A stretch of 64,000 nucleotides of DNA, taken from Gemmatimonadaceae bacterium. GTDB taxonomy: Bacteria; Gemmatimonadota; Gemmatimonadetes; Gemmatimonadales; Gemmatimonadaceae. The DNA lies in the NCBI GenBank assembly GCA_051859245.1, contig JBHYGA010000001.1, positions 512,001-576,000 of the forward strand, read 5' to 3'. Below the pieces are notes generated by a model, which saw only the letters and a list, made by a program, of their open reading frames with translations, ran no database searches and was not told where the DNA came from. Positions 3,204-20,963 of the stretch are shown here, piece after piece. A program made the translations under genes and the position numbers. Every line of letters starts with the position of its first letter. Within the stretch, counting starts at the first letter, position 1.

Positions 3204-3734
3204 TTACTCAAATTGATCCGAATACACGACGACCGTATTTGCCACTCTATCGTGCAGTGTGCGGCGTGCCACGTCGCGCCATGCTGACAACCACGTGGCA
3301 AGTATCACGACCCACATAAGTATTCCGCATCCAATGGCCACAGCGGACCCCAGTGAGGTGGTCTGGCTATAGAAGAGTGCGATGTGATTCAGTTCGAATG
3401 GAAGCAACTTGATGGCATTACGCCCGAGCGCTCGCGGCCAGTTGAGTGGATCCGCACTGCGCGATACCACACGCAATCCCAGCCATGCGGCAGCAGGCGA
3501 CGCACCGCGAGGCCGTCTGTCGCACCACGCGAAGTAGACGCAGAGGGGCAGTGTCACCGTACTAAAGACCCACACGTGCAGCACCGTGGGCGTGGCATTG
3601 CTGCGCGCTGGATTGACGACGTAGAACAGTGCCTGCGTCGCTGCAATCGCCAGATAGGCCAGGGCCGAGTCGAGAACAAAGGCTGAGAGGCGACGGCGCA
3701 GTGATGCCGGTACGCCTGAGGAGTGTGAAGTCAT
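3204..3734 (-). CDS. RDD family membrane protein
   Basis: RRLSAFVLD...LGLRVV...RRTLHDRVANTVVV. Confidence 0.8.
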   Translation of the reverse strand: MTSHSSGVPASLRRRLSAFVLDSALAYLAIAATQALFYVVNPARSNATPTVLHVWVFSTVTLPLCVYFAWCDRRPRGASPAAAWLGLRVVSRSADPLNWPRALGRNAIKLLPFELNHIALFYSQTTSLGSAVAIGCGILMWVVILATWLSAWRDVARRTLHDRVANTVVVYSDQFE

Positions 3735-3819
3735 GCGGTCATGATGGCGCGTGCCCGTTCGCATGCCAACCAGCAACTAAGTGAAGCGTCATCTCGCTGC
3801 GGTGAACTGCAGTGACGAG

Positions 3820-4605
3820 CTAGAGAGTTTGCTCGCGGATACGCTTGGAGTGGGAACGGCTCGCCAGCACGGTGCTACCATCTCGCAGTTGTACCTGAAA
3901 TCGACTTCCGTCGTACGGGATGAACTGTTGAATGTGGCGCTGGTTCACGACATGCGAGCGGTGCACTCGAAGAAACATCCCTTCCGGCAGTCGCCGCTCA
4001 ATCTCGAACAGCGGCATGTGCACGAGAAATCGGCGCCCCTGCGCGTGAATAGCCACATAGATGTCATCGGCCTCAAGACGTACAATGTCCTGAATGCGAA
4101 GCGCGACAATGCGCGCGCCGTCACGCACAAACACGGTGTGTAGTGGCTCCGCCTGCAACACGGCGCGCACTCTGTCACGCGTTGATTCGCCGTCATCATC
4201 ACCGCGTCGTCGGAGGAACACTTGCTCGCGGGCGCGCTCGACAGCTTGGTGTATCCGTGACGAATCAAATGGCTTCAGCACGTAGTCGATTGCAGCGAGC
4301 TCAAACGCATGCGTTGCATGCTCCCCATGCGCTGTAACGAAGACCACGGCCGGCGGATGCGCGCAACGCGTCAGTACCTCCATACCCGAGTAGCCTGGCA
4401 ACTGGATGTCCAGGAGGACCACATCGACATCATGGAACGCAAGCATTGCTGATGCCGACGGACCGTCCGCTGCCGAGCCGACGACCACGACGTTCGACAT
4501 GCGAGCGAGCTCGTCGAGCAACGCACGCCGCGCCAGTGGTTCGTCTTCGACCACGAGCACGCGAATTGGTGTCGTGTGTTGGTGATCGCGATCGGCCGCA
4601 GTCAC
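3820..4605 (-). CDS. LytTR-family response regulator
   Basis: Receiver domain (VVEDE, LLDIQLPG, DYVLKP) plus LytTR (FLRVHRSHVVN). Confidence 0.92.
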   Translation of the reverse strand: MTAADRDHQHTTPIRVLVVEDEPLARRALLDELARMSNVVVVGSAADGPSASAMLAFHDVDVVLLDIQLPGYSGMEVLTRCAHPPAVVFVTAHGEHATHAFELAAIDYVLKPFDSSRIHQAVERAREQVFLRRRGDDDGESTRDRVRAVLQAEPLHTVFVRDGARIVALRIQDIVRLEADDIYVAIHAQGRRFLVHMPLFEIERRLPEGMFLRVHRSHVVNQRHIQQFIPYDGSRFQVQLRDGSTVLASRSHSKRIREQTL

Positions 4606-5726
4606 GATTCGCTCGAGTGCGCAGGCATTCGGAGCACGACGTGATACCCACCGTCGTTCCCGCTCGCAATCTGCATGCTTGCGTTCGTGCCGTACGCGCT
4701 TTGCAGGCGCTCCAACACGGCACGCTGACCAATGCCGATTCCGTTACCGAATCCGTTTGCTGAATGCGACGTCACGCCGATACCGTCATCGCGCACATCG
4801 ATGCGGAGCTGTCGATCGCGGACCACCGCCAGTATCTGCAGCGTGCTGGCGCCGAGTTTTGGAAAGATCCCATGGCGAACGGCGTTCTCCACCAGTGGTT
4901 GCAATGTGAGCGCGGGCAGCAGGCACTCACGCGCCTCCTCCGAGAGCGCAACGCGCACACTCAATCGATCCTGCATGCGCAGTTGCTCGATGTCGAGATA
5001 GTCGCGAACGAGTTGCCATTCTTCAGCGACCGTGACCAGATGATCGGCACGGCCGCCAAGCTCCAGCACGCGACGAAGCAATGTCCCGGTGCGAACCAGC
5101 ATCGCCCGCGCCGTGGCTGGATCGCGCTCCACCACCGCCGCAATGCTGTTGAGCGCATTGAACAGGAAGTGTGGATTCAAATGTGACCGAATCGTGCGCA
5201 ACTCCGCTTGTGCACGAAGCGCGTCTGCCCGGTGTGCTTCACCTACCGCCGTGCGCAGTGCCAAATCCTGTTCCCGTGCGCGACGCATGGACTGCACCAT
5301 GGTCATCGCGACCAGAGCGAGCGAAAAGAGCCAAAGTCCACCGAAGGCGTCCCATGCCACCGCGTCGACGACGGTATCGGTCTCGACCCCTGCGACCCGC
5401 AAGCCCAGTCCCCACACGGCCGCATGCGCGGTGGCGAGGAGCAGCACCGCGAGCGCGGCGCCCAGACGATGCCGCCAGCGTGCGAGGTGTTCCGACTGGA
5501 TACGTCTCGCCATCGGCCACAGCAACAGTGCCAGCGTTGCGGATAGCGCACAGTTTGCTGCGGCATACCATGCAGCCGCCGAGAGCGAACCTCCGGGGCC
5601 TGCGGCGAACCCGATGAAGTACATGGCGGTCACGGGAAGCCAAGCCGCCAGGTAGCTGAGCAGCCACAGTGTCCTCGTGACGCGTGAATGCGTGTCGATA
5701 GCCGAAGGCACCCCGGTCGTTTTCAT
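4602..5726 (-). CDS. LytS/YehU-type sensor histidine kinase
   Basis: TM helices, HLNPHFLFNALN, LQPLVENAVRHG, DDGIG. Confidence 0.92.
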   Translation of the reverse strand: MKTTGVPSAIDTHSRVTRTLWLLSYLAAWLPVTAMYFIGFAAGPGGSLSAAAWYAAANCALSATLALLLWPMARRIQSEHLARWRHRLGAALAVLLLATAHAAVWGLGLRVAGVETDTVVDAVAWDAFGGLWLFSLALVAMTMVQSMRRAREQDLALRTAVGEAHRADALRAQAELRTIRSHLNPHFLFNALNSIAAVVERDPATARAMLVRTGTLLRRVLELGGRADHLVTVAEEWQLVRDYLDIEQLRMQDRLSVRVALSEEARECLLPALTLQPLVENAVRHGIFPKLGASTLQILAVVRDRQLRIDVRDDGIGVTSHSANGFGNGIGIGQRAVLERLQSAYGTNASMQIASGNDGGYHVVLRMPAHSSES

Positions 5727-5833
5727 CGTGATCGAAGAGTAGCGTGGCGCTCACGTGCAGGCGCGCATCGCTGTGGCGAACGGGCATATGGATGAGGTGA
5801 GCCGTGAACCCATCGCGAACTCGAGACGGAGGA

Positions 5834-6130
5834 TCAGCACTTCCGTACGTCCTCCCGGGATTCCGCCCCGACTTGGGTCCAGTCTTCAGCTGACAATCGG
5901 GTGACTTCGACCGGAGCCGAAGAGGTGAGTCGAGCGGCGTACTCCGCCGACGTCAAGCCACCGAGGCTGCTGTGACTGTGTTCCGCGTGGTACTCGACGC
6001 GAAAGGCTTCGATCTTGACCTGCGCGTCCACCGGCGAGGTGAAGAAGTGCTCGTTCAGGCATTCGTCGCGCAGTCGACTGTTGAAGCTGTCGATGAACGC
6101 GTTGAAGTTGAGCTTGCCGGGCCGACTGGA
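5834..6130 (-). mobile_element. IS3-family transposase remnant (C-terminal integrase core only)
   Basis: Manual translation SRPGKLNFNAFIDSFNSRLRDECLNEHFFTS...HSSLGGLTSAEYA; 5' part missing. Confidence 0.85.
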
Positions 6131-6151
6131 GTCGAGTCATTGTGTAAGTCG

Positions 6152-6248
6152 ACCTAACGCCTACCGTTCAGCTGAAGCCGCATCAAATAGAAGCGCGCGA
6201 AGCGCGCCATCCATCGCGCGGCTGTCAGTCTGCAACGGCTTGTTAGGC
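6152..6248 (-). mobile_element. Integron attC site (attC-1)
   Basis: Minus strand GCCTAAC-N5-GTTGCAG...CTGAAC-N7-GTTAGGT; imperfect hairpin; the upstream ORF's TAA lies in the R'' box. Confidence 0.9.
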
Positions 6249-6812
6249 CGATTTCGTAATTGGTATTTTGCCGACGAAGTAGAGACCTTCGCCGAGTGAG
6301 CCGAGGTCAGACAGCGACGCGGCCGAGGGTTGAAGGCATCCGACGTTGGCATCGAAATGGTAGAACGTGACATCTCGGATGATCGAGATTGAATGCATGC
6401 CCGACAGACCGCCAAAACGGCTTGAGTTAACAAATGCCATCAGCGCGGATTCCGAGTACCCGAGTAGGTCTTGCTCAATCTTCGCAGCATTGGTGGTGAC
6501 GTCGGCATAGGATGTATGGCTCACGGCTGCCCTCGCTCGCACAAAGATCGAGTGATTCGACGTTTCATGTAATGATTGAATGACTTTGTAGCCGCTCATG
6601 CCGGGCTGGCTATACCTCACGACGAAGTCGGCGAGATACGTAGCCTCGGCACATCGAGGATCAGGCGACAACCCGAAGTGCTCACAGTACGCGACAAAGT
6701 ACGAGAGGGGCGTCGCCCGCAGCCACGGCCATAGTGCCGAGGCGTAGCTCGCCAACACGCAGTAATTCCCCGATTGCACGTATGCCAAGCTTTCGAAATT
6801 TCGTCGGTCCAC
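6243..6812 (-). CDS. Integron cassette hypothetical protein, possible papain-like fold
   Basis: 189-aa ORF between two attC sites; QSGNYC...MHSISI...HFDAN. Confidence 0.7.
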   Translation of the reverse strand: MDRRNFESLAYVQSGNYCVLASYASALWPWLRATPLSYFVAYCEHFGLSPDPRCAEATYLADFVVRYSQPGMSGYKVIQSLHETSNHSIFVRARAAVSHTSYADVTTNAAKIEQDLLGYSESALMAFVNSSRFGGLSGMHSISIIRDVTFYHFDANVGCLQPSAASLSDLGSLGEGLYFVGKIPITKSA

Positions 6813-6830
6813 ACTCCCTCCCTGTATTCG

Positions 6831-6922
6831 GCCTAACGCCAGCTGCTGCAGCGGGCGTTAAATGAAATGCGCGCGCAGCGCGCTACGGACAGTTCGCCCG
6901 ACTGCAGCAAGCATCGTTAGGT
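6831..6922 (-). mobile_element. Integron attC site (attC-2)
   Basis: Minus strand ACCTAAC...TGCTGCAG...CTGCAGCA...GTTAGGC; stop of the TIR ORF inside R''. Confidence 0.88.
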
Positions 6923-7885
6923 GCCGTCTAGTGGAAATGCAGCTCTGACAAGTGCAGCGACCAGCTCGTCCGCCAACTCCGTCGAGCTGAATGGGCGCCC
7001 GCGTCCGTCCTCGTGCCAGACCCATCGATCACCCTTGGCAAGCCGAGAGCGGAAATCTCTATCTACAAGTCGAGTGACCTGATGGCTATCATAGCCACGC
7101 GCGCCAGGAAACCGCATGTATCCGCGGATGATTCGAGCATGAAGTCCAGACTTCTCGAGCGTGTTACTCCAGTTGAGCCGGAATCCAATTGAAAGAGCGT
7201 GATCGCGAATCTGCACGACGACGTGCTCACCGTCGGCGCCGGATACTACTCGCTCACCTGGAGCGTTCTGAGCAATCAGCGCGACTGACCGCTCAACGTG
7301 CTCGAACATGACGATTAGCTCGGACTTGAGCATTCGAACTCCGGCGTCGCTCGACTCAATGCTCGCCCGTCTCTCCTCATCCTGGTGTGTCCTCAACAAT
7401 CGCTCGGCGAGCTCCGCAGGCGTCTCTATGCGCTCCTGCACCCCAATCTCGCGCGTACGCGCAAGAACGACCGCCGCGAGGCCGTCGACACCGAAGTCAG
7501 CGACACTCGCGTAGATGCGGCTCTGTGGTAGCCATTTAGGCGGCTTCTCGCCGGCTACCAAAGAAGCGAGCAGAACCGTCTCCCACCCGCCCTCGAGCGC
7601 TCGGTCTTTAATCGCTGCTGCTTCAACTCTGGTCCAAGGAGTCTGCTCGTAGCCCTCGCGGAAGAGGATCACATTTAGAGCGGACTCACTTCTAAACGGA
7701 CTGCGAAAGGTTTCGAGGCCGTCCGTGCCGGCCACTTCTTCTTGACTACGCTCGTACATAAAGACCTTTAGACGTGGCGCCAGCGCTGCGTAGAGCGCAC
7801 GGGCTATATCAATGTCGCGAGCGAGAAATGAGATGGCTACGTGATACTTGAACTCTGGCATCTTTAGTTGGACGTCCGTGGACAC
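6917..7885 (-). CDS. TIR-domain protein (integron cassette)
   Basis: YHVAISFLARD...VFMYE...GYEQTPWTRVEAAAI TIR pattern with conserved Glu; true start may be ATG 7861. Confidence 0.8.
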   Translation of the reverse strand: MSTDVQLKMPEFKYHVAISFLARDIDIARALYAALAPRLKVFMYERSQEEVAGTDGLETFRSPFRSESALNVILFREGYEQTPWTRVEAAAIKDRALEGGWETVLLASLVAGEKPPKWLPQSRIYASVADFGVDGLAAVVLARTREIGVQERIETPAELAERLLRTHQDEERRASIESSDAGVRMLKSELIVMFEHVERSVALIAQNAPGERVVSGADGEHVVVQIRDHALSIGFRLNWSNTLEKSGLHARIIRGYMRFPGARGYDSHQVTRLVDRDFRSRLAKGDRWVWHEDGRGRPFSSTELADELVAALVRAAFPLDGT

Positions 7886-7976
7886 CTAACGCCCAGCTTC
7901 TGTTGCGAGCGGACGGCAAGAGGCTTCATGCGACGCAGATGGTCGGTCCGCTCGGCAACAGCAAGCACCGTTAGGC
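7884..7976 (-). mobile_element. Integron attC site (attC-3)
   Basis: Minus strand GCCTAAC...CTGTTGCCGAGCGGAC...GTCCGCTCGCAACAG...GTTAGGT. Confidence 0.88.
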
Positions 7977-8082
7977 CGCGCCACGCAGATGTTGCGTCGA
8001 AACAGCCCGTCGCGCAACGAAACGGTGACGGTCACCGGCCGGGTCGGGCGTACGCTCGACGCTCCCCGGTCCCGAAGCGCGG

Positions 8083-8116
8083 TTGCCCCACGCGGCGCGC
8101 GCGCTAGAATTTCATC
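8083..8116 (+). promoter_or_regulatory. Sigma70-like leaderless promoter of the STAND gene
   Basis: TTGCCC-16nt-TAGAAT-6nt-ATG, no Shine-Dalgarno. Confidence 0.55.
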
Positions 8117-11100
8117 ATGCCAGCAAAGGGTGGAGCATCCGGGAAGTTTGGCGACCAGTACGAAGCGCTCTGGACAGTCGACGCATTGCTACGGGTCGTT
8201 GATGGCCAAGCAGATTCCGTCACGTATGAATCCCTCGACCCTGCGTTGTCCCGTGGTGTTGAGTTCAATCTACGGTCGTCAGCAGGGTACCTGGAGTTCT
8301 GGTCGATCAAGCGACAGACGGCCACGGCGGCCGGGTGGACTCTTGCAACGCTAGTGAAGCCGGACAATGCCGGTAGATCAATCCTTGGCGACCTTATTGC
8401 CCACGTAGAACGTAACGTCAGCAATATCGCCGTTTTTGCATCCACACTTGGAGCGGCAAAGCTTGAAGAACTTCGTTCCGCTTCAGCAACAGCTGATACC
8501 TTCAATGCACGCCTCGATCAATCCAAGGAACTCACCGCCGACTACAAAAGGTACCTCCTACCCCTCTTCGGTGGTGATCAAGAGCGTGCTCGCCAGTTCC
8601 TGACACGGGTCCAAATCCGAACATCGGATGAGACATCGCTCCGGACTAATATTGAATCGGCGATCTCTCGACTGTTCTATCGAGAGACGGGTGAAGCAAT
8701 CAATGCGTCCGGGATCCGCCGATTTCTGGCCGAATACCTGCTCAATCACATCCACGAGCAGATCGATCGGAGCATGCTATTTGACCACATCGCGGCGAAC
8801 GGCATCCGCCGAATGGATTGGAAGGTCGAGAAGACGATCCGCGAGAAAGTTTCGGCGCTCTGCGATGAGTATACCCAACCGCTACGTGAGCAGTTGATTC
8901 GCGGTGTGCTTCAGACATTGCCGGGGGCAGACAAGTTGCTCGGCCCTGACGGACTGCCGATTGCCCGACGGACGCTTCTTGCGGGTGGTGCTGGGGGAGG
9001 CAAGAGCACTGAACTTGCGCACATTGTGGAACGACTTCGCAAGGCGGAAATACCCACGCTTCCTATACGGCTGGACGTTGTCCCAGAGAGCATTCTCACG
9101 CCGACGAGATTGGGGAGCGATGTGCTGTCCCTTCACACATCCCCAGTGGCCTTACTTGCGGGTATCGCCGAAGGCGGGAACTGTGTTCTGGTCATCGATC
9201 AGCTCGACGCTGTAAGCCTTGCCTCTGGTCGCCGCACCGAGGTCTGGACGCTGTTCGAGCGGCTATTGGCCGAGGCGGACGGCTATCCGAACCTTAGGAT
9301 CGTAGTCGCCTGTCGAGCTTTCGACCTGGAGCACGATCATCGAATGCGGTCGCTGAAGGCAAAGTCGTCCGTATTCGAGGTCGTCGAGATCGGCTCATTC
9401 GACTCGAAAACGGTGAACGCCATTCTAGGGGATCGGAAGGTACATCCCAAGCTGAAGCCTCTACTAGTTGTTCCTCTCCATCTCGCCATGTTCCAATCGT
9501 TGGCGACAGGCGAGAGCGAACGCATCGAAACCCGTGATGAACTGTTTGCGGCCTTTTGGACCGACAAGCAGCGGAAGACGTCACATCGCCTTGGGAGAGA
9601 TTGCAACTTCGCCGGTGTGATCGATTGGCTGGCTACTTGGCTGAGTGATCATCAAGAGTTGTCGGCGCCTGCCAGCATGCTCCCGGACGAGAGGCGTGTG
9701 GATGCCGACGCCCTGACGTCAGAGCACGTGTTGGTGCTCGCGGACGGTCGATACCGATTCTTCCACGAGACGTTCTTCGACTATGCCTTCGCTCGCCGCT
9801 TCGTCCAGCGAGGCGAAACATTGATGGATCTGGTGCTACACGGAGAACAGCATCTGTTTCGTCGAGCACAGGTACGACAGATTCTCACGTTTCTGCGCGC
9901 GAATGATCGGGCGCGATACCTCGAAGAATTGCAGTCCATCCTCAGCGAGGATCGCGTCCGCTTTCACATAAAGCGAGTGTTGTTTCAATTCCTTTCAGCG
10001 CTCTCTGATCCGACGCACCCGGAGTGGGCCGTGCTGCACGAGCTTTCGTCTGTACAGCCGGATTTACTTGGCCAAGTAAATGGAGTTGTATCGAATCACG
10101 CCGGCTGGTTCGATGTGATGCGTGCGGACGGATTTTTCGACGCGGCGCTGTCGAGCAGGGAGGCGAAGCAAGAGGAACGCGCTATATGGCTCTGTGGAAT
10201 GCCAAGGGTAATGGAGCAGTGTTCCGCGCAAGTTGCCGGGCTATTGGTGAAGTACCGGCGCGATGATGAAGCGTGGCGAAAGTATCACCGACATATCTGT
10301 CGGACTGGAAATACATTCCACAGCCGCGAGATGTTCGACCTATTCCTCTACCTGATTCGGGATGGGACGCTTGATGGAGCACGGCCCGGTTTCGCAGTTA
10401 ATGACAACTGGTGGAGTATGCTTTACTCGGTAGCGGACAAGGCCCCTGCATTGGCTAGTGAGGCAATTGCGGCCTGGTTTGACCGAAAGCTAGAAATCTG
10501 GCGTGCGGAAACCTCGGAAAGAAACGCGCTCACGAATGGTGGAGACGACGCAGACGTAGGGGACGAAAACGCCCCTGTCACCGATGCTGTTGAGTCGTCG
10601 GCGCAGAACTTGCGACGACACGTTGAAGACGACGGAAATGACTGGGGCGTTATCCAAAAGGCCGCAGAAGCGTCGTTGGAATTCGCGCAGCATCTGTTAC
10701 CCCGAATCGCAGACGTCGCCGCTGAGCAAGCGAAGCCCTCCGGTGATGATTTGGCAATTGACCCGCTGTGGTCGTTTAGGATGTTCGGAGATAGCGGGCA
10801 TGGAGCGTCCGACTTAGTCCTCAGCAACGTCGCGCAAGCACTTGAGAGGCTCGCGCAGAAGTGCCCTGAAGAGCTGGACAAGATTCTCGCGCCATACACT
10901 GAACGCCCGCACGACGCCATTGCCTATCTTGTGCTCCGCTCATGGACAGCTGCTCCAACCACCTACGCAGAACGTTGTGCTCAATATCTGAGCGAAGACG
11001 CGCGGCGACTGAAGATCGGATACGCGTCGTGGGGCGGAGGTGCTGGGGCCGGAATGGCATCCGGATACCGATCGATTGAGGCAATACGCGCATCGTCGCC

Positions 11101-12769
11101 ACACTGCGCACCCGAGACGTTCGCCGCTCTGGAAACAGCAATCGTCAATCTAGCGGACAACTGGGAGACCAAGCATCCGAAGACGCGAGGATTGCGGCAA
11201 TTGCAGCTCCTCTCCGCCATGGATATGAGTCGGCTTGGAACTGCCGGTAGATCGAAGCTGGCTGAACTCAAGGCGAAATTCCCTGAAGTCACGCACGAGC
11301 CTCCCAAAGCGATGGAGGTCGTTTGGGTCGGATCACCGATCCCCGACGACGCTCAGGCGAAAATGACCGATGATCAATGGCTCTCGGCTCTGGCGAAGTA
11401 CGCTGGTGTTGAGCGCCGGCACGATAGAGACTTCGGAGCATCGGGTGGTGAATACCAACTCGCGCAATCGCTCGAAGCCAGAACAAAGGCTAATCCCAGT
11501 CGGTTTGCCGCGCTCAGCTCCAGAATGCCGACGACGTTTCCGTCTTCGTACTTCAACGCGGTACTCCGTGGCGTTGCCGGCTCATCGTCACTAGACGGTC
11601 CGGCCGCGCCTCCCGTGTCCGTGCCTGATGTAGTCGCACTAGTCGAGCAAGTTCACGCGCTGCCAGAACGTACTTGCGGACGATCGATCGCGCACCTTCT
11701 CGAAGGCTGGAGCAAGGTCGAGTGGCCGCCTTCGATCATTGAGGCGATTGCCTGGTATGCTATGGAGGATCCTGATCCCACGGAAGAAGTCTGGCGAACG
11801 CGTTCAGCCAGTGGCCAGTTCTACTACGGCGGCAAACCCGACTCGGCAGGGTTGAATTCGACCCGCGGAGCGGCCGCCAACGCAATTGCACGGTTGCTTC
11901 TCGAGAAGCGCGAACCGGGTGACGTGCTCAGAAAGGCAGTTGAACATCTCGCCCATGACACGTCGATCGCGGTGCGGTCTCAGGCGGTTTACCCCCTGCT
12001 TGCGTTGCTCGATACACATGCCGACCATGCCATCAGGTGGTTCGTTGAATGTGTCAGCCTTGACCCGATTCTGCTCAAGGCGCACTTCGTTGAGCAATTC
12101 CTTTATCATGCGGCGTTTCGTGACTATGCTGCCATTCGACCTGTACTCGAACGAATGACCGCAAGTGACGATGAGGAAGTAGTTGAGGCTGCCGCTCGAT
12201 TGTGCTGTGTGCTCGCATTTGGCTTTGAACCAGCCGACAAAGACGCCAAGAAGATTCGCGAGGGAGGTCCAGCAATGCGCAAGAGCGCTGCCAACGTCTA
12301 CGCTACCAACGTCGCGAACGAAGAAGTCGGGGCGAGTTCACGCGAACTGCTGCTGCCTTTTTTCTCAGACACTGAAGATGCGGTGAGGACACAAGCGGCA
12401 AGTGCATTCCACGAACTTGAAAAGCTTGATGCCGCCGAGCAGGCCAAGTTGCTCGGAGCATTCTTGGATGGCAAACCTACAGCCGAAGCGTTGGAACGCG
12501 TCATCCGCGCGATCGAAGACTCGCCGGTTCAATTGCCCGACCTCGTCATCCGCGTGGTCGAAGAGGGTATTGCGGCATTCAAGGCAGATGCGGGCGACAT
12601 ATCCAAAGCGGGAGCCATGGTCGCTGGCGACCTTTCGAAAATTGTCATTAGACTGTACTCGCAGTCGGATGGTGAGCAGATCAAGAAGCGGGCTCTTGAC
12701 GCGATTGATGACATGGAGCGGGCCGGATTCTTCGGATTGGCGGACGAATTAGGGAAGCTCGAACGCTGA
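8117..12769 (+). CDS. Nuclease-STAND NTPase-helical repeat protein, Avs4/AVAST-like anti-phage protein
   Basis: N-terminal PD-(D/E)xK-like region (GDQYEALW...GVEF...EFWSIKRQ), Walker A GGAGGGKS, Walker B LVIDQLD, VVACR, FFHETFFDY, long helical C-terminus; 1550 aa. Confidence 0.75.
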   Translation: MPAKGGASGKFGDQYEALWTVDALLRVVDGQADSVTYESLDPALSRGVEFNLRSSAGYLEFWSIKRQTATAAGWTLATLVKPDNAGRSILGDLIAHVERNVSNIAVFASTLGAAKLEELRSASATADTFNARLDQSKELTADYKRYLLPLFGGDQERARQFLTRVQIRTSDETSLRTNIESAISRLFYRETGEAINASGIRRFLAEYLLNHIHEQIDRSMLFDHIAANGIRRMDWKVEKTIREKVSALCDEYTQPLREQLIRGVLQTLPGADKLLGPDGLPIARRTLLAGGAGGGKSTELAHIVERLRKAEIPTLPIRLDVVPESILTPTRLGSDVLSLHTSPVALLAGIAEGGNCVLVIDQLDAVSLASGRRTEVWTLFERLLAEADGYPNLRIVVACRAFDLEHDHRMRSLKAKSSVFEVVEIGSFDSKTVNAILGDRKVHPKLKPLLVVPLHLAMFQSLATGESERIETRDELFAAFWTDKQRKTSHRLGRDCNFAGVIDWLATWLSDHQELSAPASMLPDERRVDADALTSEHVLVLADGRYRFFHETFFDYAFARRFVQRGETLMDLVLHGEQHLFRRAQVRQILTFLRANDRARYLEELQSILSEDRVRFHIKRVLFQFLSALSDPTHPEWAVLHELSSVQPDLLGQVNGVVSNHAGWFDVMRADGFFDAALSSREAKQEERAIWLCGMPRVMEQCSAQVAGLLVKYRRDDEAWRKYHRHICRTGNTFHSREMFDLFLYLIRDGTLDGARPGFAVNDNWWSMLYSVADKAPALASEAIAAWFDRKLEIWRAETSERNALTNGGDDADVGDENAPVTDAVESSAQNLRRHVEDDGNDWGVIQKAAEASLEFAQHLLPRIADVAAEQAKPSGDDLAIDPLWSFRMFGDSGHGASDLVLSNVAQALERLAQKCPEELDKILAPYTERPHDAIAYLVLRSWTAAPTTYAERCAQYLSEDARRLKIGYASWGGGAGAGMASGYRSIEAIRASSPHCAPETFAALETAIVNLADNWETKHPKTRGLRQLQLLSAMDMSRLGTAGRSKLAELKAKFPEVTHEPPKAMEVVWVGSPIPDDAQAKMTDDQWLSALAKYAGVERRHDRDFGASGGEYQLAQSLEARTKANPSRFAALSSRMPTTFPSSYFNAVLRGVAGSSSLDGPAAPPVSVPDVVALVEQVHALPERTCGRSIAHLLEGWSKVEWPPSIIEAIAWYAMEDPDPTEEVWRTRSASGQFYYGGKPDSAGLNSTRGAAANAIARLLLEKREPGDVLRKAVEHLAHDTSIAVRSQAVYPLLALLDTHADHAIRWFVECVSLDPILLKAHFVEQFLYHAAFRDYAAIRPVLERMTASDDEEVVEAAARLCCVLAFGFEPADKDAKKIREGGPAMRKSAANVYATNVANEEVGASSRELLLPFFSDTEDAVRTQAASAFHELEKLDAAEQAKLLGAFLDGKPTAEALERVIRAIEDSPVQLPDLVIRVVEEGIAAFKADAGDISKAGAMVAGDLSKIVIRLYSQSDGEQIKKRALDAIDDMERAGFFGLADELGKLER

Positions 12770-12778
12770 ATATCGGAA

Positions 12779-13095
12779 TCAGGCAAGGTCGACTTGCTCC
12801 ATCGCACAGTTGAGCAATTTTTCGGGGTTGATGTCGAGCACGCACTGCACGCCGTTGATGAACAGAATGACGTCGTAGGGTGTGATCCAAATGGTCGGCG
12901 TTGATGCGCACTTGGAGGACGACCTCGTAAGGTGTTCTTGCACCAGTCCTTGATGATCACCAGCGTGAAGTTCAGCGGCGTGTCGTCGTCGCGGGTGAAG
13001 CTGTTGGTTGTGCAGCGGGTCTGGCTGGACGTTGTAGACGTCGGGGGTGGTAGTCTCGTCCAGCAGGCGGACGAACCCGTGTAGTAGCATCAGCG
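12779..13095 (-). pseudogene. hsdR: Type I restriction subunit R N-terminal relic (frameshifted)
   Basis: Across three frames: RLLDETTTPDV / NSFTRDDDTPLNFTLVIIKDWCKNT / RINADHLDH / YDVILFING...AMEQV, matching HsdR N-terminal sequence from recall. Confidence 0.7.
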
Positions 13096-13177
13096 AACGG
13101 TGAGCTGCGCTGAGTTTCTCCCATCAGTGGGAATGCTTCGGATTGAACTTCGAAGGCCGTCTAGGTCTTTGGGGTTT

Positions 13178-13268
13178 GCCTTACGCTAGCGTTGTCCTGT
13201 GGCGGCCGAGCGCAGCGAGGAATAGCCACCCCTTTGTGGCGGCCGTCAGGACAAACGCGAGGTTAGGC
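13178..13268 (-). mobile_element. Integron attC site (attC-4), R' core mutated to GTAAGGC
   Basis: Minus strand GCCTAAC...GTTTGTCCTG..GGCCG...CGGCC..CAGGACAAC...GTAAGGC; ORF stop in R''. Confidence 0.82.
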
Positions 13269-14177
13269 CGGAGCGCCGAAGCCTGTTGGCAGGACGGTCG
13301 CGCGAATACGTCTGTCGAGCGCCTCAACGAGATCCTCCGGCGCCTTCCACAGGATGTGACTGTACTGCCTCGTGTCAAAGTGGGCGTCCTTGATAGCGTC
13401 CTCACGGCAGGTCCAAATCACCGGAATCCCGTGCCCCTGGGCGAGACCGGCTTCGAAGTAGACTCCGCCTCGATGACCCGTGAAATCCGCGACCAGCAGT
13501 CCGCTTCGCTTGACTTCGGCGACGATCTCGTCATCAATCTTGTTGTTGTGTTCCTTGCGGTCGATGCGGAGCGCGGAGAAGTACTTCGAGCGCTCGATAC
13601 CGGGCTTGAATCCGTGAGTCCACGCGTCATCGAGCGAAGAATCGAACCACATCGCGACGAACGCCTGCCGACTGTCACGGTTCACAGCTCGAAGTGCTTC
13701 AATGCGCTGCCAGCCGGCGGCAGTGATTCGCTTCGTCGTCTGGTCGAAGAAGCCCATCTCCGCAGCCATGAACACCAAGTCGCCATACTGCGACTCGTCA
13801 CGAACCGGTACGCGGACATAGTCGTATTCCGGCTGCAGATTGATTTGCTCGCTGTATCGACGTGCCTTGGTGGCAAGATGGAGCAGAATTAGATCGACAC
13901 CAGAAGCCAACGTGCTGGTAGATGGCGCTGTGGCCGCAAGCTGCGGAGTGTTCTCGACGGTCACGAACAGATGCTCACGTCGATCTGTGGCAGCGCGGAT
14001 CGCGAATGCAAGGCGAAAGCGATCTCGTCCGAGTATGCGTTCGATTGTGGATCCAGTTGCTAGACGATCAATGGAATAGCTTCCGCATCGAGGGCATGAG
14101 AGCGTGACGGCATCGCGTTCCGGGAACCGCACCTTTTCGGTCTGAGCACCGTCACGACCACAAATCGAGCATTGCAT
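13263..14177 (-). CDS. Zn-ribbon + nucleoside 2-deoxyribosyltransferase/TIR-like domain protein (first cassette)
   Basis: CSIC...CPRC; QAFVAMWF...KIDDEI...VADFTGHRGGVYFEAG...HFDTRQY. Confidence 0.8.
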   Translation of the reverse strand: MQCSICGRDGAQTEKVRFPERDAVTLSCPRCGSYSIDRLATGSTIERILGRDRFRLAFAIRAATDRREHLFVTVENTPQLAATAPSTSTLASGVDLILLHLATKARRYSEQINLQPEYDYVRVPVRDESQYGDLVFMAAEMGFFDQTTKRITAAGWQRIEALRAVNRDSRQAFVAMWFDSSLDDAWTHGFKPGIERSKYFSALRIDRKEHNNKIDDEIVAEVKRSGLLVADFTGHRGGVYFEAGLAQGHGIPVIWTCREDAIKDAHFDTRQYSHILWKAPEDLVEALDRRIRATVLPTGFGAPA

Positions 14178-14216
14178 GCGGAAAGTGCCCTCGAACAGGC
14201 AGGTGCTTGGTTGCTT

Positions 14217-14400
14217 GCCTAACGCGTATTGGACTGCAGGCGATCATTGCACAGTGAGATTTATGTCGCGGGTCAGCGCAGCATAATCGGCGGCGACAGT
14301 GAAGCCGTTGAACAGCTTAAACACATTCGCTCCAATAGTTTATTTGGTCAAGAGTACGCCGTGTGCGAAGCGGTTATGCTGCAGATATCGCAGCCTAACG
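14217..14400 (-). mobile_element. Putative attI region
   Basis: GTTAGGC core at 14217-14223 precedes the first cassette without an attC hairpin; second GTTAGGC at 14393-14399; directly downstream of the intI stop. Confidence 0.55.
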
Positions 14401-14445
14401 CGAGCCTCCGCCGAGCTGCGACCAAACGAACTCTGTCATGATCCG

Positions 14446-14760
14446 CTATGTCGGATCCATGTCGAGCGGGCTACGGACGCCAGGGCCACCGCGATTGAGG
14501 ACGTGCGTAAAGATCATCGTGGTCGACAAGTAGCGATGGCCGAGCAACTCTTGCACGGTGCGAATGTCATAACCGGCCTCAAGCAAGTGCGTCGCGAACG
14601 AGTGACGGAAAGTATGGCAACCCACACGCTGGTCTAGGCCGATACGTCGTCCTGCTTCACACACCGCACGCTGAAGCACGCTGGGGTGGATGTGATGCGT
14701 CAATCGTACCCGGTAGTCAGGTGATTCGAACTCGCGACTCGCAGGGAACAGCAAATTGTC
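14446..14760 (-). pseudogene. intI: Integron integrase, C-terminal fragment, catalytic Tyr->Phe
   Basis: FPAS...[12 protein letters not shown]...[50 protein letters not shown]. Confidence 0.9.
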
Positions 14761-14776
14761 CACGCTGATACGCCGT

Positions 14777-15067
14777 CTACTCACGAACAACGGGCATCAG
14801 ATGCATCTCCACTCCCAGCGCGCGAAGAAGCTTTAGCACCGTGTCATATCTTGGTTTGGCTCCAGGAGCCAACGCCTTGTAGAGGCTCTCTCGGCCGAGT
14901 CCCGTATCCTTGGCCACCTGCGCCATGCCACGAGCCTTCGCTACATCGGCAATCGCCTGCAAAAAGAGTTCCGGATGCTCGCTCGCAAGTGCGACGTTGA
15001 GATATTCGGCGATGACTTCTTCGCTATCGAGATAGTCAGCGGCATCGAATGCAACAGGCTTTTTCAC
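14777..15067 (-). CDS. Addiction module antidote protein (HI1420/HigA-like HTH antitoxin)
   Basis: [11 protein letters not shown]...[22 protein letters not shown]...PRYDTV. Confidence 0.9.
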
Positions 15068-15369
15068 AGGTCTTTCTCCAAGCGGGTGCGCAAGGCTTTC
15101 GCTTTGCCGATGTCTCGGCGCTGTGTCGATTTGTCGCCGCCACACAGCAGCCAATGGGTGTCGGTTCCGTGGCGCCAGTAATACACGCGATAGCCCGGCC
15201 CCACGTGAATACGGAGTTCAAAGACGCCGTCACCTACTGCCGTACTGTCAGCAAAGTGCCCCAGTTCCGCGGCGCGGATTCGAGCAAGAATGCGCGCTTT
15301 CCCAATTGGGTCTTTGAGTGCCTTTAGCCACTCGTCGAACTCGGGAGTGCGGAAGAAACCGGATGTCAT
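15064..15369 (-). CDS. RelE/ParE-family toxin (HI1419/HigB-like)
   Basis: FDEWLKALKD...VGDGVFELRIHVGPGYRVY...LLCGGDKSTQRRDI. Confidence 0.9.
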   Translation of the reverse strand: MTSGFFRTPEFDEWLKALKDPIGKARILARIRAAELGHFADSTAVGDGVFELRIHVGPGYRVYYWRHGTDTHWLLCGGDKSTQRRDIGKAKALRTRLEKDL

Positions 15370-15403
15370 TTTGAATGTATCCATTCGGATACAGCTCGTC
15401 AAG
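15370..15403 (-). promoter_or_regulatory. TA promoter with palindromic operator
   Basis: TTGACG-17nt-TACATT-4nt-ATG; TGTATCC-N4-GGATACA at 15376-15393. Confidence 0.7.
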
Positions 15404-15535
15404 CGCGGAAAACGCGTCTGCAAGCTGGCGTGAACTGCGTGGCTCGACACCCGTGCGTCTGCACGCTACTGGCGCCGCTACTAACCAGAGTACGCACCGG
15501 GCGAAACGCACGCGTCATCACAACACCGCCGCTCG

Positions 15536-16320
15536 CATCAATCAAACCACCCATGCACAAACCACCGTCCCATTTCCTGATACAACAACAAATCTCCCTC
15601 GCCATCGGCCACACACCGCCAGTAATCGCGCGCGAACGCATCCGCACGCCACCAGTCGCCGGTGAGTCGCTCGGGACCACTCGCGTGTGACACCACCACG
15701 CGGCGCTGCTGCCACGCCACCGCACTCGGCGCACCATGCACGCCACATTCCACCGTGACGGGATCCGGCGTCTCCAGTAAACGCAACGCGGCGTGATCGA
15801 GTGGCGACGCTGCACGCGGTGTTTCATCATCACGCGATGTCACATCAGCGCGCGCACGAACATCACGCGCTGTCGCACCACCCGACGTCACATCCTCACG
15901 CGTCGCACGCTCCGCTAACGTCCACGCATCCGCACGCACCCACACACCGGCGCGATCATACCGATGTGCATCTTGGCTTTCCGGATGCACCACCACATCA
16001 CCGCGTCCGTCCGGATCAAGCGCCGCCGCCAATCGCGCAATCGCCGCTTCAACACTCGCCGCGGCATCACGCCACGACGGTTCAAGCAAATCCCCTTGAT
16101 CTGCAGCAAGTGGTGCAGTGGCGGGAATGTGCACGGTCACACCAGTCACAGCCGCCGACCGTATCCATCGCTCAAGCAACGAGCGACACTGTTCAACAAG
16201 AGGTTCAACACGCGCAAGCGGACGAGCAGGACGCACTTCGCGCGTAATGCTGCGCGTCGCACGATCCCATCCGTCGAGACGCTGCGCATCGACGCCCACA
16301 ATCGCTTCGAGATGCGCGTC
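15536..16320 (-). repeat. Duplicated 3' end of imuB (copy A, no 5' part)
   Basis: Near-identical to 19240-19976, with SNPs and a 48-bp in-frame insertion. Confidence 0.92.
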
Positions 16321-16470
16321 GCTACTCTGAGTCTCGCTTGTACACCTTGCCTACGCCTTCGCAAAGATGTTTCGCAATCTGAAATCCGCGTTAGTTGCGC
16401 ACGCGGGAAATCGCGTATGTCCCGTTATCAATGATTCTCGCAAGGCGAGCTCGGCCGTATAAATGAAGAC

Positions 16471-18072: not shown

Positions 18073-19284
18073 GTGCGATGGTGTTCTATCACGCGTGGAT
18101 CTCGTGTTGTGCTGCTTGGTTCGCTGTTCTGGGGAGGCTGTGACGGGGCGTCTAGTGAATCGGGGTCTCTCCCGCTACTTCAGCTCGCGCCCGTTTCCGC
18201 AGAAAGTGTGGTCGGTTACACATCCATCACCAGCGTTCGAGAACTCGGTGACGGACGTGTTCTGGTGACTGACCCGCGCGAAGGACGCGTTGAAGTGCTG
18301 GACTTTTTTACTGGCACTGCCACTCCAGTCGGGCGGCGCGGCGCCGGTCCCGAAGAATGGTCGTCGGCAGTGGCGGTGTGGCCCTTGGGAACCGATTCGA
18401 GTCTACAGTCGGATCCGCTGGCTCGTCGCTGGGTGTTTTTTTCGGGAGACCGGGTAGCAGCAGTTCAAACTGGTGAGTCTCTGCCGAATGAGCTCGGGCG
18501 GATGCTGATATACGGCGCAGACTCGCTTGGGAATGTGCTGAGTTTTCATCAACCCGAGATTCGGGAGCTCGGTGCTTCTGCGGACTCAGCGTCAATCCTC
18601 ATCGTTCGTCGTGCTTCCGGTCGTGTCGATACCGTCGGTCGGCTTCTCAGCGCACCCGGCGTATTGGTCGGATCAAACGTTAGAGCTGTGAGTCGACCCG
18701 CGCTCGCGGTCGGTGAGCAAGCTGCAATGTTCGTCGACGGCTGGATCGCTATTCTGCGATTACGCCCGTATCGCGTTGATTGGAGATCTCCGGACGGCAG
18801 CGAGTTGCGTGGTGCCCCGGTTGAAGTCACCGATCCCCCACTCACAGAGTCCGATCGCAGTCTCTACATTCGCGACCATCAGACGTTTATTGCGTCAGTC
18901 GACAAGATGCCGCCCGGAATGCGTGACCTCGCGCGTCGGGCGGTCTCTGATTTCCCTTCGACGCTGCCTCCTGTGCAACCTTTCGCTTTGGTCGCCGGCG
19001 GAGACGGGCTGTTGTATGTTCGTCGGACTAAGTCCGCTGACCTGCCGATGCCGATTCTCGACGTCGTAGACCGATCAGGCGTTCGTTGTGCACGCATTCA
19101 GCTTGCTGTGGGGGAGCGGCTGCAGAGCGTGACCCAGCGTTGGATGTATGTAGTGGTTATTGATGAAGACAACGTCGAGCGTGTTCGTCGCTACGAAAAT
19201 GTTGCCTCGGCCGCCGCGAATAGTTCGCCGCTCACGAGTCATCAATCAAACCACCCATGCACAAACCACCGTCCCATCTCCTGA
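18073..19284 (+). CDS. Beta-propeller (6-bladed-like) lipoprotein
   Basis: Lipobox-like FWGGC, VRELGDGRVLVTD, GRRGAGPEEW; start uncertain; C-terminus overlaps the imuB stop region. Confidence 0.7.
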   Translation: MRWCSITRGSRVVLLGSLFWGGCDGASSESGSLPLLQLAPVSAESVVGYTSITSVRELGDGRVLVTDPREGRVEVLDFFTGTATPVGRRGAGPEEWSSAVAVWPLGTDSSLQSDPLARRWVFFSGDRVAAVQTGESLPNELGRMLIYGADSLGNVLSFHQPEIRELGASADSASILIVRRASGRVDTVGRLLSAPGVLVGSNVRAVSRPALAVGEQAAMFVDGWIAILRLRPYRVDWRSPDGSELRGAPVEVTDPPLTESDRSLYIRDHQTFIASVDKMPPGMRDLARRAVSDFPSTLPPVQPFALVAGGDGLLYVRRTKSADLPMPILDVVDRSGVRCARIQLAVGERLQSVTQRWMYVVVIDEDNVERVRRYENVASAAANSSPLTSHQSNHPCTNHRPIS

Positions 19285-19976
19285 TACAACAACAAGTCGC
19301 CTTCACCATCGGCCACACACCGCCAGTAATCGCGCGCGAACGCATCCGCACGCCACCAGTCGCCGGTGAGTCGCTCGGGACCACTCGCGTGTGACACCAC
19401 CACGCGGCGCTGCTGCCACGCCACCGCACTCGGCGCACCATGCACGCCACATTCTACCGTGACGGGATCCGGCGTCTCAAGTAAACGCAACGCGGCGTGA
19501 TCGAGTGACGATGCTGCACGCGGTGTCTCATCATCACGCGACGTCACATCCTCACGCGTCGCACGCTCGGCTAACGTCCACGCATCTGCGCGCGTCCACA
19601 CACCGGCGCGATCATACCGGTGCGCATCTTGGCTTTCCGGATGCACCACCACATCACCGCGTCCGTCCGGATCAAGCGCCGCCGCCAATCGCGCAATCGC
19701 CGCTTCAACACTCGCCGCGGCATCACGCCACGACGGTTCAAGCAAATCCCCTTGATCTGCAGCAAGTGGTGCAGTGGCGGGAATGTGCACGGTCACACCA
19801 GTCACAGCCGCCGACCGTATCCATCGCTCAAGCAACGAGCGACACTGTTCAACAAGAGGTTCAACACGCGCAAGCGGACGAGCAGGACGCACTTCGCGCG
19901 TAATGCTGCGCGTCGCACGATCCCATCCGTCGAGACGCTGCGCATCGGCGCCGACAATCGCTTCGAGATGCGCGTC
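19240..19976 (-). repeat. imuB 3' end (copy B, within the intact gene)
   Basis: Direct repeat of 15536-16320. Confidence 0.92.
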
Positions 19977-20963
19977 CGTATTCTGACGCGCCACATCAAG
20001 CTCCAGCGTAATCGCCACCGACGCCGCTGATCGTCCGTCACGCACGAGATCGTGCACCAGACGTTCAAGCGCCGCGCGCACAAGAAATCCAACTGGCGTC
20101 ACAGTCTGCGCCGGTGTCGCCAACTCGGCGTGCACCGCGCGTGGTGCATCAACACGCACAAGTCCCGGACGACGCGGATCAATACCGCGCGCGAGTTTCC
20201 AACTGGCTAGACCGGTGGCACCCCAACGCGCTTCTACATCACCAGACGCCAGCGCCGCAAACGCACCGAGTGTGCGAATGCCGAGTGCGCTCAGTGCAGT
20301 GCGCACATCCGCGTCCATGGGAATCAAACCCAGCGGAGCGGGAGCCAGATACGCCGCACACCCACCACTCGGCACAATCGTACTGGCACTGCCACGCGGA
20401 GGATTCCACGTCGCCGCGCGCGCTGACACACACGAATCCGCAATCGCCACACGCGCATCTGGATGCCAGCGGCGCGCAATTGTGAGCAACAACTCGAGCA
20501 ACGCGTCTTCACCACCGGGTCGATTGGCAAAACCATTCGCACCAATCCACCACGTGCCTGCGGCACCCGCGGCCGGCGTGACCTGCGGACTGGCCGCCAG
20601 AAATGACGCCGTGGTTTCGGTAATCGCACGCGTGATCGTGTCATGATCCCACTCGCGCACATCAAGCGTCGCACACCGCGCCCGCGCTTCGGTCACGCGC
20701 ATTCCCGCCGTGACGCCAGCCCGCGCCGCCGCCACCGACACGGCCTTGAGCCGCTGTCCCTCCATGAGCGCCCGCGGAGCCGTATCCCAATGGGCAGCCG
20801 GCGCCGCCAGCACCGTTTCCGCCGGCCCCATCGCCAGCGCCAACGTGAGCTGCACCGGCGCCGCACCCACCGGTACCGGCGCATTCCGCCACACCGCCCC
20901 AAGAGGGAAGCGCGGAATGCGAACACAGGCAATTCGCCAGGGGGAAGGGGCAGGGGAAGTCAT
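19242..20963 (-). CDS. imuB: ImuB, Y-family polymerase-like mutasome subunit
   Basis: IACVRIPRFPL, AARAGVTAGMRVTEARARC, LGIRTLGAFAAL, GPERLTGDWW...RDYW...HGWFD. Confidence 0.85.
   Translation of the reverse strand: MTSPAPSPWRIACVRIPRFPLGAVWRNAPVPVGAAPVQLTLALAMGPAETVLAAPAAHWDTAPRALMEGQRLKAVSVAAARAGVTAGMRVTEARARCATLDVREWDHDTITRAITETTASFLAASPQVTPAAGAAGTWWIGANGFANRPGGEDALLELLLTIARRWHPDARVAIADSCVSARAATWNPPRGSASTIVPSGGCAAYLAPAPLGLIPMDADVRTALSALGIRTLGAFAALASGDVEARWGATGLASWKLARGIDPRRPGLVRVDAPRAVHAELATPAQTVTPVGFLVRAALERLVHDLVRDGRSAASVAITLELDVARQNTDAHLEAIVGADAQRLDGWDRATRSITREVRPARPLARVEPLVEQCRSLLERWIRSAAVTGVTVHIPATAPLAADQGDLLEPSWRDAAASVEAAIARLAAALDPDGRGDVVVHPESQDAHRYDRAGVWTRADAWTLAERATREDVTSRDDETPRAASSLDHAALRLLETPDPVTVECGVHGAPSAVAWQQRRVVVSHASGPERLTGDWWRADAFARDYWRCVADGEGDLLLYQEMGRWFVHGWFD

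Follow-up and report, generated by a model that had tools for sequence, protein, structure and literature searches.

The region described here lies in a 64,000-nucleotide window from a Gemmatimonadaceae bacterium (assembly GCA_051859245.1, contig JBHYGA010000001.1, positions 512,001 to 576,000), in which positions 6152 to 14752 hold an integron array beside a fragment of its integrase gene, intI. As read from the sequence, the locus comprises a dead platform, three cassettes and one composite slot. The favoured reading, held at a probability of roughly 65%, is that of a sedentary integron with its array on the 3' side of intI, now dead, which holds three cassettes and a further slot into which a chromosomal receptor gene of the STAND type was grafted. 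An initial annotation had presented the whole as an integron-built anti-phage island; the term integron-built fits the three small cassettes and fails for the STAND gene, which shares its 5.3-kb slot with the remnant of a type I restriction gene, hsdR, and the stump of an element of the IS91 family of insertion sequences (IS). A broken array carrying a grafted chromosomal receptor may show one way in which arrays gain genes.

The integron platform

Four attC sites on the minus strand delimit the slots: attC_a (6152-6248, 97 bp; 55.4 bits, fold z -4.0), attC_b (6831-6922, 92 bp; 54.8 bits, z -5.8), attC_c (7884-7976, 93 bp; 46.0 bits, z -5.0) and the degenerate attC_d (13178-13268, 91 bp; 28.7 bits, z -3.1), whose core reads GTAAGGC rather than starting with GTT and is one base off the ideal GTTAGGC. 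The bit scores come from a covariance model trained on 24 attC from related genomes, to which the window contributed nothing, and the z values from folding the bottom (plus) strands against 200 dinucleotide shuffles. Since the best score outside these sites in the 64 kb was 11.8 bits, the four hairpins of 91-97 bp reported earlier stand well above the next-best place under this relatives-only model, and they show the R and L boxes and the bottom-strand hairpin of a complete integron. The model drew on 33 attC calls, nine of which were set aside before alignment, one as doubtful and eight for their likeness to others retained; a structure of 23 pairs was then assigned manually, with 91% of cells paired and 93 two-sided changes, and these pairing statistics lean towards structure because a scanner had pre-selected the relatives' sites for pairing. 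The regular-expression scanner recovered three of the four window sites and was replaced by the covariance model, while a whole-genome search with the model scored 150 of 8403 candidates, with three of the four window sites among those listed. An Rfam search of the 64 kb gave no match. Three open reading frames (ORFs; 6243-6812, 6917-7885 and 13263-14177) have their TAA inside the RYYYAAC box, and the two pairs of complementary cassette ends claimed in the initial annotation are both present. Measured core to core from the intI side, the slots span 1039, 5294, 1053 and 679 bp. A single Logan contig covers positions 5500-15565 with zero differences; it probably derives from the source run and hence serves as an assembly check only.

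The intI 3' remnant (14446-14752, minus strand, about 100 codons) does not reach as far as 14790. Against TIGR02249 it aligns over positions 216-313 (E 9.5e-39), scoring under the 265-bit cut-off of that model, and it shares 92% identity with the stretch 229-328 of the intact IntI frame, 329 residues long, in a relative of the same genus (G002); judged by this match only, about 70% of the gene is deleted. The catalytic tyrosine, kept in 20/20 relatives, is replaced by phenylalanine (the remnant reads TTMIFTH). Neither a full-length IntI with its catalytic tyrosine nor any other IntI was found in the 99.87%-complete, 11-contig assembly, where the remaining matches are weak and Xer-recombinase-like. 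The earlier characterisation of the array as frozen is borne out by these features, and in this assembly the integron is evidently no longer able to recombine on its own. At the 3' end of intI lies an attI region (14217-14445, minus strand; core GTTAGGC at 14223-14217), recognised by homology: together with the intI tail it is 89% identical to the corresponding region of G002, attI-like sequence follows intI in other relatives too, and an attC-type fold is lacking (z +0.7). Two candidates for a fifth attC, at 14217-14314 and 14393-14470, both within this region, were rejected (z +0.7 and -0.2, no model match). At its other end the remnant is joined, through a 4-bp microhomology (shared GCTG), to 21 nt of a gene of the Pfam family DUF2442 (14749-14769, minus strand), 18/21 of them identical by eye to the G002 gene upstream of intI; the two joined points lie 812 bp apart in G002.

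Co-orientation of intI and the array had been taken as the rarer arrangement, which does not apply to this lineage, where it is the norm. IntI matches at E <=1e-40 were present in 30/40 relatives, the unpublished G021 included, 26 of them above the cut-off, and in 8/8 relative loci with wide surroundings every top-strand attC is located on the 3' side of intI and shares its strand, with none 5' within 4-11 kb. G002 has an integron at the same locus with an intact intI and different cargo. The arrangement has also been described before. In Treponema integrons (PMC3607928), transcription of intI runs in the direction of attI and the cassettes, as in the window, and the accessible part of PMC3575428 names an inverted-integrase group, with which the window and the 8/8 relatives share a co-oriented array at the intI 3' end. 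The window differs in its deleted integrase and its Tyr-to-Phe change, and the likeness drawn here is one of orientation. A dead integrase and co-orientation are therefore ordinary features.

The 5.3-kb slot and its IS91-family stump

Between attC_c and attC_d lies the slot of the receptor gene (8117-12769, plus strand, antisense to the array), which at 5294 bp far exceeds the median of 757 bp and the maximum of 3529 bp in 40 attC spacings from seven relatives. A canonical cassette would be one compact gene with a GTT core and not much further DNA, whereas this slot combines a GTA core, an antisense gene, an hsdR scrap and an IS91-family stump. The scrap is a frameshifted remnant of type I restriction subunit R (12838-13079, minus strand; blastn 75% to annotated hsdR, E 6e-30), with pieces in three frames, and is matched at 72-77% in 3/200 family genomes; a tblastn search of its frameshifted frames against the homologue loci returned nothing, but blastn did match. 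That the slot arose by the usual route as a genuine giant cassette, as the initial annotation implied, is highly improbable. It does have an attC at both bounds and 6/7 complementary end bases, and the length of cassettes is reported not to be tightly restricted (PMC5371416), but the stump, the scrap and the antisense gene speak against it, neither attC nor intI was found at any of 82 STAND homologue loci (864 kb), and cassette defence genes are described as smaller than usual in the available text of 10.1101/2024.07.02.601686.

The stump (7977-8103, plus strand) consists of the leader and the decayed first transposase codons of an IS91-family element and abuts attC_c. The 120-bp interval that separates attC_c from the receptor was matched in 15/200 family genomes at 25 places; the stump query matched 19 genomes overall, four of them through attC alone. 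In 13/14 distinct loci the match continues into the start of a transposase, and a full-length element lies at L157:3705-5220 in a relative (G456), where PF14319 and PF04986 score above cut-off, so that both Zn_Tnp_IS91 and Y2_Tnp are present there, while the window retains the leader and first codons only. An attC abuts the element in 11/14 loci, a proportion biased by the presence of attC_c in the query. The attC_c type and the stump were matched together at 68-85% in relatives, which indicates that this attC type travels with the element. The element is widespread in the family; it lies antisense against the R'' box of attC and is internally deleted in most of the other loci (L152-L163). At L154 and L161 its remnant sits between a cassette ORF and the attC of that cassette, and L155:692-4621 (G122) offers a parallel to the large slot of the window: between two attC, its 3.76 kb contain a cassette ORF, an antisense gene for a BD-FAE esterase and an IS91 remnant. 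Lodgement between gene and attC is also a trait of IS1111-attC elements, which use an IS110-family recombinase.

The fourth slot thus reads as chromosomal defence-island DNA fused to what is left of the 5' end of an IS91-family element that abuts attC sites. Some observations count against this composite reading. The element has a conserved, sharp far-end motif in 7/12 loci, which we take to resemble oriIS; this motif is absent from the window slot, so that the element may have caused the capture or may simply mark the junction. The neighbourhoods of the STAND homologues speak for a chromosomal defence origin, with a type I hsdR neighbour in 4/23 loci and some PADLOC hit in 8/23; these counts come without a background control, however, and the two closest homologue loci (59-60%) have no PADLOC neighbours.

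A possible alternative, though not the favoured one, is passive insertion, in which an incoming fragment entered an element-bearing cassette by illegitimate recombination, with no transposase or integrase at work and the stump marking the junction only. The internal deletions of the element in most relatives and its remnants inside cassettes at L154 and L161 suggest that such slots decay often, the slot ends share no repeat longer than 8 bp, and microhomology joining took place at this very locus in the intI deletion. On the other hand, passive insertion leaves the parallel slot of G122 as a coincidence, and the 5' end of the slot shows no vestige of any previous cassette ORF.

It is quite unlikely that the slot is a new cassette made by the integrase itself. 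In that scheme the element would have carried attC_c to a donor receptor locus and then lost its body by deletion, after which the integrase would have cut out a circle of receptor, stump and attC_c, using a secondary genomic site in the DNA that flanks hsdR, and integrated it at attI. The non-canonical core at the 5' end of the slot, whose first ~105 bp are unmatched in the 200 family genomes, would fit, as would the element with its attC at an array head beside non-cassette DNA at L157; genome-inserted cassettes can moreover excise at nearby genomic sites, according to the available text of 10.1101/2022.09.11.507474. However, the core GTA departs from the attG consensus GWT given in that text and, being one base off GTTAGGC, looks like the product of simple decay, attC_d has decayed elsewhere too, and long cassettes can recombine less well (PMC5371416).

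Under the composite reading, chromosomal defence DNA would most likely have entered through or into the IS91-family element when the DNA was rearranged, and would have taken the place of the transposase body, and the later deletion in intI would have fixed the arrangement; this order of events is a proposal only. The receptor would be expressed independently of its array position, from a candidate hybrid promoter (8083-8110, plus strand) made of a -35-like TTGCCC from the stump and a TAGAAT -10 box 6 nt before the ATG, which would yield a leaderless transcript. The -35-like hexamer is what decay has left of the transposase start codon, and within 20 bp of it comes the receptor -10. The match to consensus is 9/12, and a scan alone performs at chance (4 found, 4.0 expected). 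A TAnnnT box at -16 to -4 occurs in 16/35 homologue loci against a background of 3.4%, the 35 loci being listed by hand and including some near duplicates; the receptor gene would thus bring its own leaderless -10, and the hybrid promoter is a probable assignment. A TAGAAT-like box 5-7 nt before the STAND start codon is also kept in distant homologues (L037-L063), which suggests a family-wide leaderless transcript.

The origin of new cassettes has been described as largely unknown (PMC5371416). A slot that keeps donor scraps such as hsdR and a transposon stump against an attC represents a testable DNA-based route to cassettes, for which the full-length element in G456 is available. That in this lineage a family of attC-specialised IS91-type rolling-circle elements acts as a DNA-based cassette maker, with this locus a snapshot of that step, is a tentative and fairly unlikely extension; if true, the element would put an attC beside chromosomal genes, and even a full-size capsid-sensing receptor would become integron cargo.

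The Avs7-related receptor

The 1550-aa receptor comprises a putative Cap4-like nuclease, a STAND NTPase and a helical-repeat sensor; it is related to Avs7 and probably a member of it. It has 104 homologues of similar length, with homologues at 28-33% in 3/400 phylum genomes, and its model reaches a predicted local distance difference test (pLDDT) score of 90.9. Its sole significant match in the PDB is SeAvs7 (9N00; E 3.6e-21 and 7.1e-31), which the available text of 10.64898/2026.01.04.697583 describes as a Salmonella Cap4-STAND receptor activated by the phage major capsid protein. All three modules are collinear with SeAvs7, at E 7.4e-4 for the N-terminus, 4.5e-20 for the NTPase and 5.4e-19 for the sensor alone; with a sensor-only profile, the match after SeAvs7 comes only at E 1e-3, and the sensor is homologous to that of Avs7 and Dsr1. 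The Walker A motif, the Walker B residue D361, R400 and H550 align with nucleotide-binding residues of SeAvs7, the last three corresponding to D358, R395 and H545 as read from the profile alignment, and K296, S297, D361, R400 and H550 are invariant in 26/26 homologues, so that the conserved STAND nucleotide-binding residues are in place. In the same alignment N1247 and Y1330 fall on the capsid-contact residues N1204 and Y1289, and none of the five EF-Tu contact residues of SeAvs7 is identical (0/5).

Compared with Avs7 as documented in the accessible material (SeAvs7, PDB 9N00/9N01/9YIX), the receptor thus shares the module order (a putative Cap4 domain, the NTPase and a sensor that aligns with the bilobed one), a similar length (1550 vs 1523 aa), the NTPase residues, sensor homology and the equivalents of N1204 and Y1289; it differs by its distant sequence, its S-x-K nuclease motif and its EF-Tu contacts. 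The claim of defence-like cargo is well supported for this gene, as an Avs7 homologue.

Other findings weigh against the Avs7 assignment. Identity to SeAvs7 is low, and fold searches with a model of 1160 aa yielded, for the most part, unspecific HEAT/ARM proteins; SeAvs7, whose presence in the libraries was not established, was not among the matches listed. The best Avs in these searches was Avs4 (TMq 0.37); an Avs4 assignment was dropped in favour of Avs7 on the profile matches, although Avs4 led the Avs proteins by fold. No Avs model of PADLOC 2.0 matched at E 0.01, the only match being PDC-M54A (1.4e-10). The nuclease motif has Ser (S-x-K) in place of the SeAvs7 Gln in 22/31 rows, the receptor included, and the Pfam Cap4 model matches 10/31 homologues but not the window protein.

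From homology, the receptor would work like SeAvs7, binding the major capsid protein of a phage and oligomerising on ATP, upon which the Cap4-like domain would degrade DNA and the infected cell would die. The genome itself holds no PF05065 capsid gene. At one homologue locus (L069:10786-14340) a Dsr1-like protein directly follows the STAND homologue; Avs7 and Dsr1 share a sensor domain.

Small cassettes, known systems and flanking features

The three small slots are, as far as sequence can tell, ordinary single-gene cassettes. Cassette 1 (13263-14177, minus strand; 1039 bp, first position) encodes a 304-aa protein with a CxxC zinc ribbon and a predicted NDT fold. PF05014 scores 18 bits, below cut-off, and DNPH1/Rcl matches are weak (E 0.2-0.7); the protein has 7750 homologue clusters, its homologues are annotated NDT, and the putative catalytic E242 is invariant in 50/50 aligned members, all of which (50/50) weakly match the PADLOC effector model PDLC00733. 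An attC directly follows the gene in 1/3 family-level loci. Cassette 3 (6917-7861, minus strand; 1053 bp) encodes a predicted TIR-domain protein with a C-terminal domain of no known type; the ORF is called from 7885, and translation more probably begins at the ATG at 7861. The protein itself gave no Pfam, PADLOC or PDB match. Atlas clusters that score 0.98 against it carry TIR_2 in 10-17% of their members, and others that score 0.96 carry it in 82-100%; PF13676 is found in 6/22 homologues, and the Glu of WTxVE is invariant in 18/18. In the 3/300 phylum genomes with TIR homologues, no attC occurs within about 1.5 kb of them.

Cassette 4 (6243-6812, minus strand; 679 bp) is a near-orphan of 189 aa and a candidate cysteine peptidase of papain fold, with four homologues among 5.8 billion and none in viral contigs or in the 400 phylum genomes. 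Q13, C18, H140 and D154 are invariant in 5/5, which gives the fold a Cys-His-Asp triad and an oxyanion Gln. The model (pLDDT 77) has PeiR as its best fold match, with a modest Z of 8.9, a root-mean-square deviation of 3.3 and 137 aligned residues, in a list that is almost entirely papain-like; Foldseek returned nothing at E 0.001. The three genes are plausible defence genes, and by fold they would be effectors of abortive infection, so that the locus offers three candidate effectors, a near-orphan peptidase among them.

It is rather doubtful that the STAND gene alone is defensive and that the three small cassettes are enzymes of other use. No curated system covers the TIR or papain-fold genes, the NDT match is to a weak effector model, and the arrays of relatives, read by eye, are dominated by toxin-antitoxin pairs and by small proteins of the secreted or membrane kind; at the loci searched, moreover, no link of the TIR and papain homologues to a defence island or another cassette was found, which tells against the defence reading of these two. 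Against a non-defensive role stand the invariant putative catalytic Glu of both TIR and NDT and the fact that these folds are common abortive-infection effectors. Integron cassettes are also 2.2-fold enriched in defence systems, as given in the available text of 10.1101/2024.07.02.601686.

Defence cassettes, dead integrases and co-orientation are already known. In the accessible text of 10.1101/2025.06.18.660453, Xanthomonas integrons with inactivated intI carry large intI deletions that stabilise the array, as here; they belong to another lineage and have another orientation, and 1.8% of their cassette orthologues are called defence, whereas in the window all four slots are defence-like by fold. 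The anti-phage biobanks of Vibrio sedentary chromosomal integrons, as far as described in the available text of 10.1101/2024.07.02.601686, likewise hold small single-gene candidate defence cassettes, but their systems are streamlined, and the NLR-type gene of 4.65 kb in the window is the opposite, extending integron defence cargo to a full-size Avs7-type receptor. No Avs in a cassette was found in the literature searched, which excluded most subscription journals and the supplementary list of that study, and the word integron has 0 occurrences in the main text of 10.64898/2026.01.04.697583.

Mobile elements have been linked to integrons in other ways, covered by the available part of PMC8876359. 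ISCR1 and IS91-like elements in complex class 1 integrons also place an IS91-family rolling-circle element beside non-cassette genes; ISCR1, however, sits by the 3' conserved segment, and the window-type element abuts the R'' box of attC in antisense orientation, within chromosomal arrays or at their head. Group IIC-attC introns likewise come to separate the gene of a cassette from its attC, but employ a reverse transcriptase rather than an HUH/Y2 transposase. No attC-abutting IS91 family was found in the literature searched, which misses most subscription journals.

Beyond the far end of the array lies an insertion-sequence transposase remnant (5937-6124, minus strand), presumably of the IS3 family, with a blastn match of 69% (E 6e-9) to plasmid genes labelled 'integrase / insertion element protein'. 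On the other side, a RelE/ParE-HTH toxin-antitoxin pair of the HI1419/HI1420 type (14777-15450, minus strand; TIGR02683 and TIGR02684 above cut-off) occupies the position of the intI 5' region, without attC or cassette ends; its homologues at 79-80% are true cassettes in G005 and G008, and G002 carries a DUF4160/DUF2442 pair in its place. Elsewhere in the genome, a second integron remnant (G000:C6:208120-210761; L128, L131, L132) has an attI-like region with no intI upstream and three top-strand attC of 74.5, 44.5 and 35.5 bits; one of its cassettes is presumably of HigBA type. A third attI-like region (G000:C4:523500-523760) is preceded by a few intI-tail codons and followed by cassette-sized ORFs. 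Adjoining the integron in the window, a gene that we take to resemble a Y-family polymerase accessory is partially duplicated, its copies at 15536-16330 and 19240-19986 being 91% identical. At the array end, 3204-5726 holds a LytTR two-component pair and a membrane-protein gene with no match in the compared stretch of G002, whose shared flank reaches almost to its array.

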